From contig OZ024754.1 of the NCBI GenBank assembly GCA_964016885.1, positions 5,828,001-5,892,000 of the forward strand: a DNA stretch of 64,000 bases, given 5' to 3'. The stretch comes from Eledone cirrhosa (taxonomy: Eukaryota). The notes below the pieces were generated by a model. It was not told the DNA's origin. It saw only the letters and a program-made list of their open reading frames with translations, and ran no database searches. This document shows, piece by piece, positions 6,146 through 63,260 of the stretch. A program made the translations under genes and the position numbers. How positions within the stretch are numbered: position 1 is the first letter of the stretch; every line of letters starts with the position of its first letter.

Positions 6146-6325
6146 CAAAGGAAAAGTGGTAAGGAACCAGATGAACCATAACGCACCAGAGTACTCAATA
6201 CTTAGAGTAGTAGAGTGGGAAATAGGAAAGAGTATGACCCCGACGGCAGAGCTCAAGCCGTTTCGACGGCTATTTCTGGACTAAATTAGAATGAGCTCTG
6301 CCGTCGGGGTCATACTTTTTCCTGT
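6146..6325 (-). mobile_element. TA-embedded element family H2 (hammerhead 3' half), partial fold-back
   Basis: Minus strand GAAAC-GGC-TTGAGCTCT-GCC-GTC-GGGGTC; inverted partial copy at 6292-6322; homologues at 17570, 29116 and 42899. Confidence 0.7.
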
Positions 6326-7319
6326 ATATATATGGGATAGTGGCCGCAAAGGTATGCACGTACAAACATTATAAATATATATATATATATATATATATAT
6401 ATATATATATATATATATATATATATATATATATATATATATATTTATATATATATATATATATATATGGAAATATCATAAATTATATAGAGAAAAGTTC
6501 AAATGAAACGCAATAGTATAAAAAGGTTCTCAAATTATGAAAAGCCACGCCTTCCATCAGTGTTTCTGGCCACGCCCACTCTATCAATCTCCTGTCAATC
6601 TAGAAATAAGGACAAAAGACAGGAAATATATAAGAAAGATGTCATAAATGAATGGCTTGGTTATATATTCTCTATTGTGTTTGTTCACACGCGTGTATAT
6701 ATATGTATATATATGTATATATATATATGTATATATATATACATATATATATAATATATATATATATATATATATATATTATATATATATATATATATAT
6801 ATATTATATATATATATATATATATATATATATTATATATATATATATATATATATATATATATATATAGAGAGAGAGAGAGAGGGGGGGGAAGGTACTA
6901 TTCGTAGTGATAGAGTACTCAGTCCTTAGGACGAGTTAGGTAGAAGTGGTAACCACTTATATATATATATATATATATATATATATATATATATATATAT
7001 ATATATATATATATATGTAGATAAATCCATAGATCTATATCATATACATACCAACACACACATATATATCCTAGAAACGATCGTAAAATGATGAAATTTT
7101 TAATATAAGGAACTGTTTCTTTGTTTTTATTCATTATTTTTTATTAATTTATATATATATATATATATATATATATATATATATATATATATATATATAT
7201 ATATATATATATATATATATAAATATATATATATATATACCAAGGGCGGTGCCCCAGCATGGCCTCAGCCGGATGGCTGAAACAGGTAAAAGAGTAAAAG
7301 AGTATATATAAACATATCA

Positions 7320-7783
7320 ATGATATTAATAAATTAATAAATGGAAACTATATTTATAAAACCATATTTATTTTATTATATATATATTTCAAGGGTACCA
7401 AAACACTATGGTACGCCCTCATCAGATAAAATACAGAATGTGTTTAATAAATAGTTTTATAAATAGTGACATACCGATAAACCAGACCTTAACGGTTCAG
7501 GTTCCAAATGGAAACTGAACCGTTAAGGTCTGGTTTATCGGGTATGTCACTATTTATAAAACACATTTTGTATTTTATCTGATGAGTGCGTACCATAGTT
7601 TTTTGGTACCATAGTTTTTTGGTACCCTTGAAATATATATAATAAAATAAATACGGTTTTATAAATATAGTTTCCATTTATTAATATCATTGATATTATA
7701 CTCCAGGAAAGTTGTAGAGTGCTTCGAATCTGTTATAATAAATAAATTTGTTGAAGTACCAGCAAATTTAGTATTTCTTTGCT
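7320..7783. mobile_element. Fold-back element family H3 (Penelope-like pLTR dimer)
   Basis: About 180-bp inverted arms (7321-7500 / 7514-7690) plus a one-sided tail to 7783, TA-rich flanks; each arm carries a hammerhead motif. Confidence 0.8.
7571..7649 (+). ncRNA. Type I hammerhead ribozyme motif (H3); mirror copy at 7369-7433 on the minus strand
   Basis: Stem I TATTTTAT/ATAAAATA, core CTGATGA, stem II GTACCA/TGGTAC, GAAA, minimal stem III with TA loop, AUA cleavage triplet. Confidence 0.75.
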
Positions 7784-7837
7784 TATATATAAACATATAT
7801 ATATGTATGTTCTCATTTTTGGTGTTACTGATAATGT

Positions 7838-8955
7838 CGGTGGTGTTGGTATTGTTGTTGGTGTTGGTGTTGTTGTTGTTAGTGTTGGTGTTGGTGGTGT
7901 TGTTGTTAGTGTTGGTGATGGTGTTGTTGGTATTGTTGTTGTTGGTGATGGTAGTGTTGTTGTTAGTGTTGGTGTTGGTGGTGTTGGTATTGTTGTTAGT
8001 GTTGGTGATGGTGTTGTTGTTGTTGGTGATGGTGTTGGTGGTGTTGTTGTTGGTGTTGGTGATGGTGGTGTTGCTGTTGTTAGTGTTGGTGATGGTGGTG
8101 ATGGTGTTGTTGGTGTTGGTGATGGTGGTGTTGTTGTTGTTGGTGATGGTGGTGTTGTTGTTGGTGGTGATGGTGGTGTTGTTGTTAGTGTTGGTGATGG
8201 TGGTGTTGTTGATAGTGTTGATGTTGGTGGTCTTGTTGTTGTTGATGTTGGTGGTGTTGTTGTTGTTGGTGATGGTGGTATTGTTGTTAGTTTTGGTGAT
8301 GGTGGTGTTGGTATTGTTGTTGGTGTTGGTGGTGTTGTTGTTAGTGTTGGTGTTGGTGGTGTTGTTGTTAGTTTTGGTGATGGTGGTGTTGGTATTGTTG
8401 TTGGTGTTGGTGTTGTTGTTGTTAGTGTTGGTGTTGGTGGTGTTGTTAGTTTTGGTGATGGTGGTGTTGGTATTGTTGTTGGTGTTGGTGGTGATGGTGT
8501 TGGTGGTATTGTTGTTAGTTTTGGTGATGGTGGTGTTGGTATTGTTGTTGGTGTTGGTGGTGTTGTTGTTGGTGGTGATGGTGTTGGTGGTATTGTTGTT
8601 AGTTTTGGTGGTGTTGGTGTTGGTGGTGTTGTTGTTGTTGTTGGTGGTGATGTTGTTAGTGTTGGTGTTGGTGGTGTTGTTGTTAGTGTTGGTGATGGTG
8701 GTGCTGTTGTTAGTGTTGGTGATGGTGTTGGTGGTGTTGTTGTTGGTGTTGGTGATGGTGGTGATGTTGTTAGTGTTGGTGGTGTTGTTGTTGGTGATGG
8801 TGGTGTTGTTGTTAGTGTTGGTGATGGTGGTGTTGTTGTTGGTGTTGGTGATGGTGATGTCGGTGTTGTTTTAGTTTGTGTTAGTGTTTCTGTTGTCATT
8901 GGTGCTGTTGTTAGTTTTTGGTGTTGATGATGTTGTTGGTGGTGGTGATGGTGTT
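7838..8955. repeat. (GGT/GTT/GAT)n trinucleotide-based low-complexity satellite
   Basis: Directly visible; keeps three frames open (poly-Val/Leu, Gly/Val, Thr/Pro). Confidence 0.9.
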
Positions 8956-9640
8956 ACTATTAGAGCTTATGTTATTGTTAGTGTTGGTGTTGTTGTGTTC
9001 GTTTCGATGTTATTGTAGTTGTTAATGATTGTATTAGTATAGGTGGCGTTGCTATAGATAGTGTCTAAGTCTAATTAAGGGAGTCTTCCATAAAAAAACC
9101 TTTTACCTTCATACAATTACATTCAATGCGGCGTAATTGTAATTCTATTCCCTATATTTGAAAGTTTCCATATTTTCAATTGATCATTAGCTACATCGAT
9201 GAAACAGATTCGATTTTGCGAGTTCAAACATGAACTTTGAGAGACATCCAGTCATGGTGCCAATACTTTTATGTGACGCTTTACATAAATATTAAATTGA
9301 TACATTATTTATTTCTGTTACATCATATATGTATGTATATATATATGTATATATATATATATATATATATATATATATATATATGTGTGTGGGGGGTGGG
9401 GTGTATACATAGACATGTATATATGTATGTGTGTGTGTGTATACATAGACATATATATATATATTTATATGTGTGTGTGTGTGTGTGTGTGTGTGTGTGT
9501 ATGTGCGTGTACAAATCAGGATAGAACCAATAGAGTACTCGATACTACTTGTGGTAATAGAGTATGGTTATATTATAAAGAGTCGGGTCCCGACCCTTTA
9601 TATATGTGTATGTAAATAGATCGATAGATAGATAGATATA

Positions 9641-61149: not shown

Positions 61150-61352
61150 TTAATAATAAATGTGAAGACTAAAATCCAAAGAGGGCTCGATAAGGATAAA
61201 TATATATCAAATATATAAGAACCCTAGAGCAAATATTTATTAAAATAAAAGATTCAAGTTTAAGCAAAGAATAGCTGCTTTCACCCTTAAGAAGATCCCG
61301 TTAAGGGTGAAAGGAGCGATTGTTTGCTTAAACTTTAATCTGTTATTTTAAT
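61150..61352. mobile_element. H7 fold-back element
   Basis: Inverted arms 61240-61290 / 61301-61352 and a tail containing GAGGGCTCGATAAGG; other family copies at 5779, 19305, 29600, 30130, 34880, 36350, 43250 and 52118. Confidence 0.78.
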
Positions 61353-62092
61353 ATGTGTGTGTGTGTGTGTGTGTGTGTGTGTGTGTGTGTGTGTGTGTGT
61401 GTGTGTGTGTGTGTGTGTGTGTGTGTGTGTGTGTGTGTGTGTGTGTGTGTGTGTGTGTGTGTGTGTGTGTGTATTTAATATAGAAAAGGCTTCTGCAGGA
61501 CTAGAACTATTTCATTCGGGAAGTCCTGTAGAAGCCTTTTCTATATTAAGTATTTATACTCCGCTTTGTATTGAGTACATTTGACACTCTGTATCTTTGT
61601 GTACCTAGTGACACTCTGTATCTTTGTGTACCTAGTGACACTCTGTATCGATGTTGCCTGACTCTGGAATCTGGATTCCAGAGTCGGGCTGGATCGATAC
61701 AGATCGAACCTTGAGCTGATCAATAGCGAAACGCGCGTCACTACTCAATAAACGTAATGGAGGCATAACAAATCGTGCTTATTATTATTATTATTATAAT
61801 TACACTCTGCTTAGTTCTTCAACTCTTTATCGACTGGAAACTTTGCATCGAGTGCTCACTCTGGTCATCCGACCGTAACTGGACGTTACTTTCCCTATAT
61901 ATATATATATATATATGAAAAAGTGAGTCCTTCATCAGTGACCCTCCAACCGTCCTCGGCATTTCATCGCTTTAAGGGCCATATGCCTCAGGTTGGTGCG
62001 AACAACGGCTAAAAAAAGTCGTTGGGACACGTAAATAAAGGGGGACGCTAGATATATATATATATATATATATATATATATGTATGTATATA

Positions 62093-62230
62093 TTAAAATA
62101 ACAGATTAAAGTTTAAGCAAAGAATCGCTGCTTTCACCCTTAACGGGATCTTCTTAAGGGTGAAAGCAGCTATTCTTTGCTTAAACTTTAATCTGTTATT
62201 TTAATAAATATTTGCTCTAGGGTTCTTATA
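62093..62230. mobile_element. H7 fold-back element, opposite orientation to the 61150 copy
   Basis: AAAATAACAGATTAAAGTTTAAGCAAAGAAT..CCCTTAA-CGGGATCTTC-TTAAGGG..ATCTGTTATTTT. Confidence 0.78.
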
Positions 62231-62799
62231 TATTTTATATATATATATAAATATATATATATATATATATATATATATATATATATATATATATATATAT
62301 ATATATATATCATATATAGATATAGATAGATAGATAGATAGATAGATAGATAGATAGATAGATAGATAGATAGATAGATAGATAGATAGATAGATAGGTA
62401 GGTATATATATGCGTGTAAATATATATTTATATATATATATATATATATATATATATATATATATATATATATATGCGTGTATATATATATATTCATGTG
62501 TGTGTGTATGTGTGTATGCGTGTGTGTGTGCGTGTGATTGCAAAATTCGCAACAGATACGGTACAACAGACGGAAGTGCAGCAACGAACGAATAAGAAAT
62601 GATTCGTGAACTGGCGACAAAATGATGGCGACACACACACACGTGTGTGTGTATGAATATATATATAAATATATATAGACATACACACACACACCCACAC
62701 ACTCACACCCACACATATATATATATATATATATATGTCCCAAGGCTGTGATACCATCAACACTATACACACAGAGCTGGCATATCTAAGAACTGACTA

Positions 62800-62855
62800 A
62801 CTGCCTGATGAGGTCATAGCCATTCAATGGCTATCATCGAAATATATATAGCAGT
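62800..62855 (+). ncRNA. Canonical-core type I hammerhead ribozyme motif (family H12)
   Basis: Stem I ACTGC/GCAGT, CTGATGA, stem II closed by G-C with ATAGCCA/TGGCTAT, GAAA, 2-bp stem III with ATAT loop, AUA site (after 62850); about 45 nt upstream of (TA)n. Confidence 0.82.
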
Positions 62856-63260
62856 AAATAAAGGATTATGAGTTCATGTAATTGACTTATCTTTCGTCAC
62901 TATATATATATATATATATATATATATATATATATATATATATATATATATATATATATATATATATATGTAGGAGGTGAGTTTTATTGTAGTACAAATG
63001 CGCATAATAAAATACATGGAACTCTTTTAACCATCTCTTGATCTTATATATATTATATATATATATATATATATATATATATATATATATATATATATAT
63101 ATATATATATATATATATATATATACATATATTATTTATAAATATATATACATATGTATTTATTATAAATATATATATGTATTCATATATATATATATAT
63201 AAATATATGAATACATATATATTTATATATATATAGAGAGAGAGAGAGAGATATGTATAT

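Follow-up and report, generated by a model that had tools for sequence, protein, structure and literature searches.

The short hammerhead-bearing elements scattered through a 64,000-nt stretch of the Eledone cirrhosa genome (assembly GCA_964016885.1, contig OZ024754.1, positions 5,828,001 to 5,892,000 of the forward strand; this whole stretch is hereafter called the window) are probably the pseudo-long terminal repeats (pLTRs) of at least eight protein-coding families of Penelope-like elements (PLEs), and the short and fold-back copies were likely made at insertion from the uncleaved, capped mRNA of the coding element itself. The initial annotation of the window had recognized most of these families within (TA)n tracts and had interpreted them as a Penelope-like pLTR or retrozyme system, made up of non-autonomous pLTR-only elements mobilized in trans. 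The identification as PLE pLTR hammerheads is upheld here by the continuity of the families with open reading frames (ORFs); the non-autonomous and the retrozyme parts of that interpretation were not supported.

Continuity with Penelope-like coding elements

Loci were fetched from the same genome assembly (L numbers below), and the DNA searches of the genome gave the best 40 matches each, so that the ratio of short to long copies is only rough. Eight of the nine families and subfamilies tested continued unbroken into ORFs of the reverse transcriptase (RT)/GIY-YIG type, and the connection with a Penelope-like RT that the initial annotation had proposed looking for is thus present. Elsewhere in the genome a Hydra-clade ORF was joined by H1, H3a, H3b, H4, H12 and the 6146 family, and a Neptune-like ORF by H5 and the 36161 family.

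The locus L137 contained a complete H1 element, in which the hammerhead and tail are followed by an intact ORF of 713 codons, a 2.6-kb untranslated region (UTR), a TATA box and the same hammerhead again. The motifs of its protein include RWR, DKT, YRDD and IVY...YIG, a linker of the form C-N-C-x5-C, a GIY-YIG domain without CCHH, and CDLC...E...N...CMH. The set considered diagnostic of the Hydra clade consists of the RWK motif, DKT in place of DKG, a CxCX5C linker, the absence of CCHH, and CxxC and CxH around E and N (PMC8557442), and L137 carries this set with RWR for RWK. The protein also resembles Hydra-1_Obim by eye, and on the motifs together with this comparison it is assigned to the Hydra clade. 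The 3' UTR of the element (L137:3780-6440) consists mostly of TA/TG microsatellite; a full-length copy would therefore carry microsatellite to new places besides having it as its target.

When 30 H1 loci were chosen only by the tail end, four of them continued past the tail into the ORF, five continued upstream into the UTR with the TATA box, and 12 were fold-backs near the putative transcription start (+1). The short copies are 96-97% identical to the pLTR of the coding element and are without its TATA box. For H4, two loci (L246 and L250) had an ORF end upstream and a tail continuing into an ORF, with RWK and DKT found in L250. The pLTR repeat, with the hammerhead inside, stood on both sides of ORF sequence in L137 (H1) and L250 (H4). 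Hydra ORF sequence lay upstream of H12 in the sense direction in 13 of 30 loci, and the 6146 family followed Hydra ORF ends in 5 of 30 loci, one of them weak. The long form of this last family has a complete hammerhead with a U3-A8 core, a 9-bp stem II and a 32-nt loop. An ORF end was located 1.5 kb upstream of H3a in L077, which has the CxCX5C linker and the C-terminal Hydra motifs, and 1 of 29 H3b loci continued into a Hydra ORF. A Neptune-like GIY-YIG was found upstream of H5 (3/29 loci) and of the 36161 family (2/29 loci), and the ORF-linked copies of these two families share 73-85% identity with one another over 1.0-1.3 kb of intervening DNA.

A genome search with the Pfam GIY-YIG model gave 10,596 candidates, 150 of which were scored. 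The ORFs found in this way belong mostly to Neptune-like families that have their own hammerheads, unlike those of the window, and matches of the window families near these ORFs were rejected as links, being independent insertions. Simple repeats in the reference sequences made the 'INV' flags for H5 and 36161 and one total unreliable, and these figures were likewise left aside.

Several of the coding families found in the genome have hammerheads or hammerhead-like motifs at their ends. In the hammerhead of one Neptune-like family (L051, L052, L055, L060 and L061, 3' of GIY-YIG ORFs), as in H1, U.U replaces G10.1-C11.1 where stem II begins. Several other Neptune-like families (L048, L049, L053, L063, L065, L066 and L067) end in hammerhead-like motifs that combine a palindromic CCGG stem III with the U3-A8 core, and one of these families has GCAA in place of GAAA.

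Hammerhead motifs in the window and in the genome

The window has a GC content of 30% and plentiful (TA)n tracts. Motifs were searched on both strands with a strict type I descriptor (stem I of at least 4 bp, CUGANGA, stem II of at least 3 bp, GAAA, a hairpin or palindromic stem III, and UH), and the controls were 200 dinucleotide shuffles, 100 of the whole window and 100 in 300-nt blocks. Fifteen motifs were observed, against none in each of the 200 shuffles, so that the excess over shuffled AT-rich sequence on which the initial annotation depended is present; CUGANGA cores numbered 38, against 8.8 and 10.8 in the two types of shuffle.

All 18 places named in the initial annotation hold the family sequence described for them. 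The hammerhead fold proposed for them was retained in part: 10 of the 18 match the strict descriptor, namely 22059, 48774 and 19769 (H1), 14305, 22475, 23077, 45917 and 50407 (H3), 54360 (H5) and 62805 (H12), but the other eight are decayed in the core or in a stem. The defects are a mismatch in the first stem I pair (H1 34752), a broken stem III (H1 38832), a 16-nt duplication in stem II (the H3 7571 arm), a stem II mismatch (H3 30586), the core CUGUCGA in the window copy of H4, which is CUGACGA in 28 of 29 genome copies, the core CUGGCGA (H5 21737), replacement of the palindromic CG of stem III by CC (H5 39127), and the absence of a stem I partner at 36188 in the 36161 family, as also in the six genome copies viewed. 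Five mirror arms (7425, 22047, 22883, 48761 and 50237) also match the descriptor. The predicted cleavage sites 22097/8 and 62850/1 were placed at the same positions by the descriptor, and self-cleavage of the window hammerheads is a prediction from their sequence.

The fold-back form applies to 7 of the 18 named loci, but the remaining loci are single arms. The (TA)n setting was confirmed: 21 of 24 arm 3' ends, which were chosen by hand after removal of simple-repeat noise matches, have a (TA)4+ tract no more than 12 nt away, against a background of 0.155. Similarly, the elements are without coding sequence inside the window, as had been stated, since no PLE protein match was obtained there by tblastn (E<=1e-4) with seven PLE proteins of this genome.

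For the genome, forty 10-kb stretches at round coordinates of the 3.0-Gb assembly were requested, of which 39 exist (390 kb), and the type I descriptor was widened to include the U3-A8 core. In this sample 48 motifs were found, against 0-2 in ten shuffles, and the density was alike in large contigs (24 in 200 kb) and small ones (24 in 190 kb). By extrapolation the genome would contain about 370,000 motifs (bootstrap 246,000-507,000), an average of about one per 8 kb, and the window has about twice the genome average. One exact 33-base pattern of the H1 tail end occurs 926 times in the genome, and the candidates per Hydra family number hundreds to thousands, as lower bounds.

Chance matches in AT-rich DNA, or palindromes that are artefacts of assembly, have almost no probability as an explanation of these motifs. 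The absence of any Rfam hammerhead match and the weak predicted folds in five of seven families speak for them, and the same results count against reading the motifs as hammerheads. No Rfam family reached its gathering score in the window; at E<=10 there were 703 matches, nearly all of the 150 listed being microRNA models on TA/CA repeats, and no hammerhead model matched the H12 and H5 stretches at this threshold. The curated Rfam hammerhead models are not known to have been built on PLE variants. In H1, H3, H4, H5 and 36161 the hammerhead is not the minimum-energy fold of the monomer, and among eight stretches folded it appeared at minimum energy only in H12 (stems I and II) and, as a three-way junction, in the full form of the 6146 family. 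However, a chance origin is refuted by the shuffle comparisons in the window and in the 390-kb sample. Moreover, unrelated families of the window keep the hammerhead core and stems. In H1, 96.4% of stem cells are paired in 13 distinct copies, which are related to one another, and only 2 of 500 shuffles were as high; the family shows one clear two-sided change in stem I (A-U to C-G) and has U.U in place of the closing pair G10.1-C11.1. An artefact of assembly is opposed by the unequal arms and their family-specific ends.

Ends, tails and arms of the copies

The 3' ends of each Hydra family are fixed at two places, the short site and, 75-85 nt beyond it, the tail site. These sites were found near +67 and +141 in H1, at 61 and 135-137 in the 6146 family, and at 106 and 184-188 in H3a. 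Head-to-head pairs generally have a tail at one end only. Among 38 H1 pairs, half of which came from loci chosen for a tail, 33 had one tail, three had two, two had a tail and an intermediate end, and none was without a tail. The 6146 family, which was never used as a genome query before the count and was found incidentally, had one tail in 33 of 34 pairs and no tail in one, and H3a had one tail in 11 of 12. The PLE feature of an inverted 5'-truncated copy joined head to head, with the tail at one end, is thus found in these three families. The tails of H1, H3a, H3b, H3c, H4, H12 and the 6146 family, otherwise unrelated, share by eye a short motif YYGAGYRC(T) between the two 3' ends, which is a candidate protein-binding site.

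The two arms of a pair share the same variants at polymorphic columns (34/34 in H1; 15/15, 26/26 and 27/28 in the 6146 family; expected 0.33-0.50), from which it follows that both arms derive from one template. In the 22054 fold-back the arms differ at 2 of 133 positions. The fold-back junctions vary between copies, and the end of each arm falls on a PLE 3' site that is specific to its family, a combination that fits formation at insertion from the RNA of the coding element itself.

The 5' ends of H1 are clustered. In loci not selected on H1, 15 of 22 arms begin between -1 and +6 of a CA situated 30 nt after the TATA box, and the full-length L137 begins at the same site as the short copies; only 1 of 109 arms begins within 3 nt of the predicted cleavage site. 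Similarly, the 6146 family has a site 30 nt downstream of a TATA-like box, and 69 of 101 arms start no more than 8 nt from it, against 2 of 101 at the cleavage site, and 4 of 40 viewed arms extend more than 20 nt upstream. This TATA-like box is the 5' strand of stem II, and transcription would start inside loop II of the ribozyme. An equal spacing from TATA to TCACT was seen by eye in H3c. In the 16 H1 arms that end at +1, the preceding base is G in eight, C (the genomic letter) in seven, T in one and A in none. In L1 elements, a copied cap is known to leave an extra G.

Origin of the short and fold-back copies

Based on these ends, the following course of events is proposed. The GIY-YIG endonuclease of the element would cut both strands of a (TA)n tract, and the RT would begin inside the RNA, as in the lizard PLE in vitro. 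A start in the 5' pLTR copy of the capped mRNA would run off at the cap after 60-140 nt and leave an ORF-less 'strong-stop' copy, and ordinary copies, either full or truncated at the 5' end, would come from a start in the 3' pLTR. A dimer of the protein acting on a single RNA could make one start at each of the internal sites, with one cDNA per target end, and the two cDNAs could then be joined head to head at their cap ends into a one-tailed palindrome. The hammerhead would be carried along, its cleavage product not serving as the template. A transcript of a fold-back holds one sense ribozyme paired with its own antisense, so that such copies are unlikely to cleave; in read-through RNA the hammerhead would be buried in a long hairpin. 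Where the promoter lies inside the ribozyme, with the TATA-like box in stem II and the start in loop II, only read-through RNA at the 3' pLTR could cleave, and this layout, if true, points to the hammerhead as a 3'-end or read-through cutter.

Several observations weigh against this interpretation. The transcription start, the cap and the cleavage are deduced from DNA ends only. The L137 protein falls below the Pfam cut-offs (GIY-YIG E 0.14; no RVT_1), the ORF links of H3a and H3b are each from one locus, and H3c had no sense ORF link in 29 loci. A few of the loci are local duplicates. Clustering at TATA+30 was looked for in H3a and H12 and was not seen, and the 5' ends of H3a, H4, H5 and H12 are scattered as in ordinary 5' truncation. 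In H1 the count of extra G is small, and the corresponding counts of the 6146 family (G 4, C 9, T 13, A 0) do not reach significance. The concordance of the arms, moreover, would be equally expected from snap-back copying or from later gene conversion.

The choice between two-ended priming and snap-back copying is based on 14 tail-plus-short H1 pairs with a shared centre. Two-ended priming by a dimer with head-to-head joining has about even odds. In snap-back copying, the chief alternative, which would likewise make the elements PLE pLTRs but is considered rather unlikely, the first cDNA would fold on its own 3' end and copy itself, and the endonuclease would trim the copy at the short site. 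This would account for the two arms having the same variants, one of which, shared by the arms in L123, is private, and for the +1 base being kept by the tail arm in 11 of the 14 pairs. The junction in L003 fits a 3-bp hairpin, and in L004 more than 200 bp of flank is duplicated in inverted form. Self-priming has been proposed for PLEs with inverted pLTRs, which have palindromic junctions, TATA and initiator (Inr) elements (PMC3846280), and resolution of the tail by the endonuclease has been suggested as well (PMC8557442). However, in the remaining 3 of these 14 pairs it is the short arm that retains +1, and the tail arm cannot then have been copied from it; in vitro both boundaries of the tail are RT starts and both target strands are extended (PMC11167929). 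The H1 fold-back in L004 (L004:1200-2100), with its host flanks inverted and duplicated over more than 200 bp, suggests either snap-back through the target or later growth of the palindrome.

The non-autonomous population of the initial annotation, i.e., short pLTR-only families that propagate themselves with PLE proteins acting in trans, is improbable. It would agree with the lack of a PLE ORF in the window, with the excess of short over ORF-linked copies (12 fold-backs near +1 against four reaching the ORF among the 30 tail-selected H1 loci), with the frequent recurrence of one H1 junction type and with the unlinked H3c, and both trans action and non-autonomous PLEs have been reported (PMC3846280; PMC8557442). 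On the other hand, eight of the nine families are continuous with ORFs, the short copies are nearly identical to the coding pLTR and are without its TATA box, the junctions are variable, and both arms end at fixed PLE 3' sites, whereas copies made from a palindromic master would have antisense arms of random length. Some short elements may nevertheless have been copied secondarily in trans.

A very improbable origin is that of non-LTR retrozymes, which cleave themselves to monomers, circularize and reinsert. The type I hammerheads with palindromic stem III are compatible with it, and retrozymes have been argued to derive from PLE pLTRs (bioRxiv 10.64898/2026.07.22.740005). However, no head-to-tail units of the same family occur within the window, paired motifs lie on opposite strands and leave one sense ribozyme per transcript, and the 5' ends of the copies avoid the cleavage site.

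Derivation from coding PLEs at insertion is retained as the probable origin of the elements of the window. A wider claim is made more tentatively, at somewhat below an even chance: the genome would hold several hundred thousand PLE hammerheads, the commonest short fold-backs would be strong-stop footprints (a dimer, capped uncleaved mRNA, two starts and cap-end joining), and one family would have its promoter inside the ribozyme. If true, the strong-stop model would account together for three features of all endonuclease-bearing (EN+) PLEs, namely the pLTR in inverted form, the presence of one tail and the solo pLTRs.

Organization of the window

The PLE ends of the window are listed in Table 1. 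They include the 6146 family, which was not among the families named in the initial annotation and whose four occurrences in the window are all without the core.

Table 1. Ends and pLTR copies of Penelope-like elements in the window.
Element	Position	Strand	Remarks
6146 family pLTR (Hydra-clade PLE)	6146..6325	-	tail arm and short mirror arm; only the 3' half of the U3-A8 hammerhead
H3b fold-back	7302..7700	.	core 7425 (-) passes; right-arm core near 7579 (+) with stem II duplication
H4 fold-back, Hydra-clade PLE pLTR	13080..13518	+	core 13348 mutated in window copy; mirror arm without core
H3b single arm, short 3' end	14224..14411	+	core 14305; predicted cut after 14353
Further PLE end	17253		among extra PLE ends in the window
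6146-family fold-back, tail arm and short arm	17587..17749	.	without catalytic core
H1b single arm in (TA)n	19717..19774	-	core 19769 passes
H5 single copy, 3' end of Neptune-like PLE	21641..21863	+	core mutated
H1 fold-back, both arms tailed	21917..22190	.	joined at putative transcription start 22053/4; cores 22047 (-) and 22059 (+); predicted cut after 22097
3' terminal piece, Neptune-like coding family of L048/L049/L053	22232..22340	+	
H3c single arm	22370..22544	-	core 22475 passes; family without ORF link
H3a fold-back, Hydra-clade PLE pLTR	22697..23176	.	tail arm core 22883 (-); short arm core 23077 (+)
6146-family fold-back	29113..29320	.	without catalytic core
H3a single arm with tail	30400..30620	-	core 30586, stem II mismatched
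H1b fold-back	34623..34819	.	tail arm without core; short arm core 34752 with a mismatch in stem I
36161 family, 3' end of Neptune-like PLE	36072..36226	-	core 36188; without stem I; has stem II and the palindromic CG
Inverted pair of 3' ends, Neptune-like family of L048	37228..37411	.	
H1b single arm	38779..38839	-	core 38832, stem III broken
H5 single copy	38998..39196	-	core 39127, palindromic stem III lost
6146-family inverted pair	42911..43052	.	without catalytic core
H3b single arm, shortened by (TA)n	45864..45960	-	core 45917 passes
H1 fold-back, tail arm and short arm	48642..48835	.	extra G before +1; cores 48761 (-) and 48774 (+)
H3a fold-back	50131..50595	.	short arm core 50237 (-); tail arm core 50407 (+)
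Further PLE family	53152..53350	+	core near 53189; in L081 the family comes after a GIY-YIG ORF
H5 single copy	54231..54463	-	core 54360 passes; stem III of the minimal CG type
H12 single copy, 3' end of Hydra-clade PLE	62737..62900	+	core 62805; predicted cut after 62850

At 21490-23270 five PLE ends of five families are set back to back with only TA tracts between them, as if the TA left by one insertion had been the target for the next, and such stacking with TA between the ends is common in the genome loci too. A decayed H1b inverted pair at 61475-61581 lies 270-315 nt from the nearest TA tract. Another repeated element, at 61800-62050 (-) and also at 44883 and 50647, has a CUGAUGA core at 61938 and a stem II region split by (TA)n. 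The ORF fragments at 10092-10985 (-), 16400-16726 (+) and 21131-21475 (+) resemble by eye pieces of non-LTR retrotransposons, which we take to be Tx1-like, of the restriction-like endonuclease type and RTE-like. The window also has long simple arrays, namely (ATTAT)n at 31678-32656, a TA-rich unit of 58 bp in about 59 copies at 39438-42898, and a 3.4-kb pentamer-like array at 55900-59330, which gives rise to long spurious ORFs.

Significance and comparison with known systems

The elements of the window are new families of a known kind of PLE, with Hydra-1_Obim as a described example and opposite-strand pairs known since 2014. The literature searched, which covered few subscription papers, gave no count of hammerheads in a cephalopod and no report of a PLE hammerhead with an internal promoter or of a PLE junction with a G derived from the cap. 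How PLEs form single-tailed inverted repeats and why the hammerhead is kept are listed as open questions in PMC8557442. The density of about one motif in 8 kb makes thousands of almost identical insertion footprints available for such questions. The one-tail rule, the concordance of the arms, the clustering of start sites and the extra G bring one insertion model within reach of a test, for which L137 provides an intact young ORF. For the question whether the ribozyme serves the 3' end only, the 6146 family is a natural test case. For annotation, it is worth checking short ORF-less palindromes in (TA)n as PLE ends before they are filed as short interspersed nuclear elements (SINEs) or miniature inverted-repeat transposable elements (MITEs). 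In Octopus vulgaris, 893 recently active unclassified SINE families were annotated, with ribozymes and palindromes not mentioned in the portion of that report drawn on here (PMC13282606; its repeat library was not compared).

The Hydra clade was defined in PMC8557442, in which Hydra-1_Obim of Octopus bimaculoides is entered with (TA)n targets and the tail is described as often being at one end only. The Hydra families studied here agree with this clade in the C-terminal GIY-YIG without CCHH, RWK or RWR, DKT, the CxCX5C linker and CxxC and CxH around E and N, and also in the hammerhead in the 3' end and the (TA)n targets, insertion into (TA)n being seen in genome loci outside the window as well. 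They differ in comprising six families and subfamilies, none of which has the Hydra-1_Obim hammerhead by eye. Hydra-1_Obim is listed as having no pLTR, whereas clear pLTR-ORF-pLTR copies were found here, and the tails are 75-85 nt here compared with 30-40 nt (PMC8557442). L137 spans about 5 kb, owing to its microsatellite-filled 3' UTR, and not less than 3 kb as is general in the clade, which is a tendency and not a strict rule.

For metazoans, Cervera and de la Pena (2014, PMC4209133) reported minimal PLE hammerheads in numerous heterogeneous families within a genome. According to that report most are single motifs belonging to truncated PLEs, opposite-strand pairs are 100-700 bp apart, a U3-A8 core occurs, activity in vitro is low, and Xenopus tropicalis has about 9,000 motifs. 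The hammerheads of E. cirrhosa share the heterogeneous families, the predominance of single motifs of truncated PLEs, the opposite-strand pairs at these distances, the palindromic stem III, the extra base before stem II and the U3-A8 variant. Unlike in the sections of that report drawn on here, the number estimated is about 370,000 instead of the largest count of about 9,000, the descriptors being different; H1 has U.U for G10.1-C11.1, in several hammerheads stem III is a true stem or stem II is long, and one family has its putative start site inside loop II.

As in Neptune PLEs, H5 and the 36161 family follow a GIY-YIG preceded by a zinc-finger linker of the CxxxxC-x-C-xx-C type and have minimal hammerheads of the CG type. 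Their placement in this clade is suggested by motifs and tblastn only, and 36161 is without stem I.

In the Poseidon PLE of Anolis carolinensis (PAc), it was reported that both target strands are cut and extended in vitro, that the RT starts at two internal sites bounding the tail, that the protein is predicted to be a dimer and that uncleaved RNA is the substrate (PMC11167929). By analogy, the elements studied here may share with PAc the two internal RT starts bounding the tail, the AT-rich targets, the hammerhead near the 5' end and the uncleaved RNA template. PAc belongs to another clade, however, and its sites are in the ORF, whereas both H1 sites are in the 5' UTR (ATG at about +182). Head-to-head joining and run-off products at the cap are not addressed in the portion of the PAc study used here.

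Finally, the elements resemble non-LTR retrozymes (bioRxiv 10.64898/2026.07.22.740005; PMC7229834) in their non-coding copies and in type I hammerheads related to those of PLE pLTRs. Retrozymes are defined by head-to-tail tandem units, whereas the copies in E. cirrhosa are single or head to head and are continuous with coding elements.

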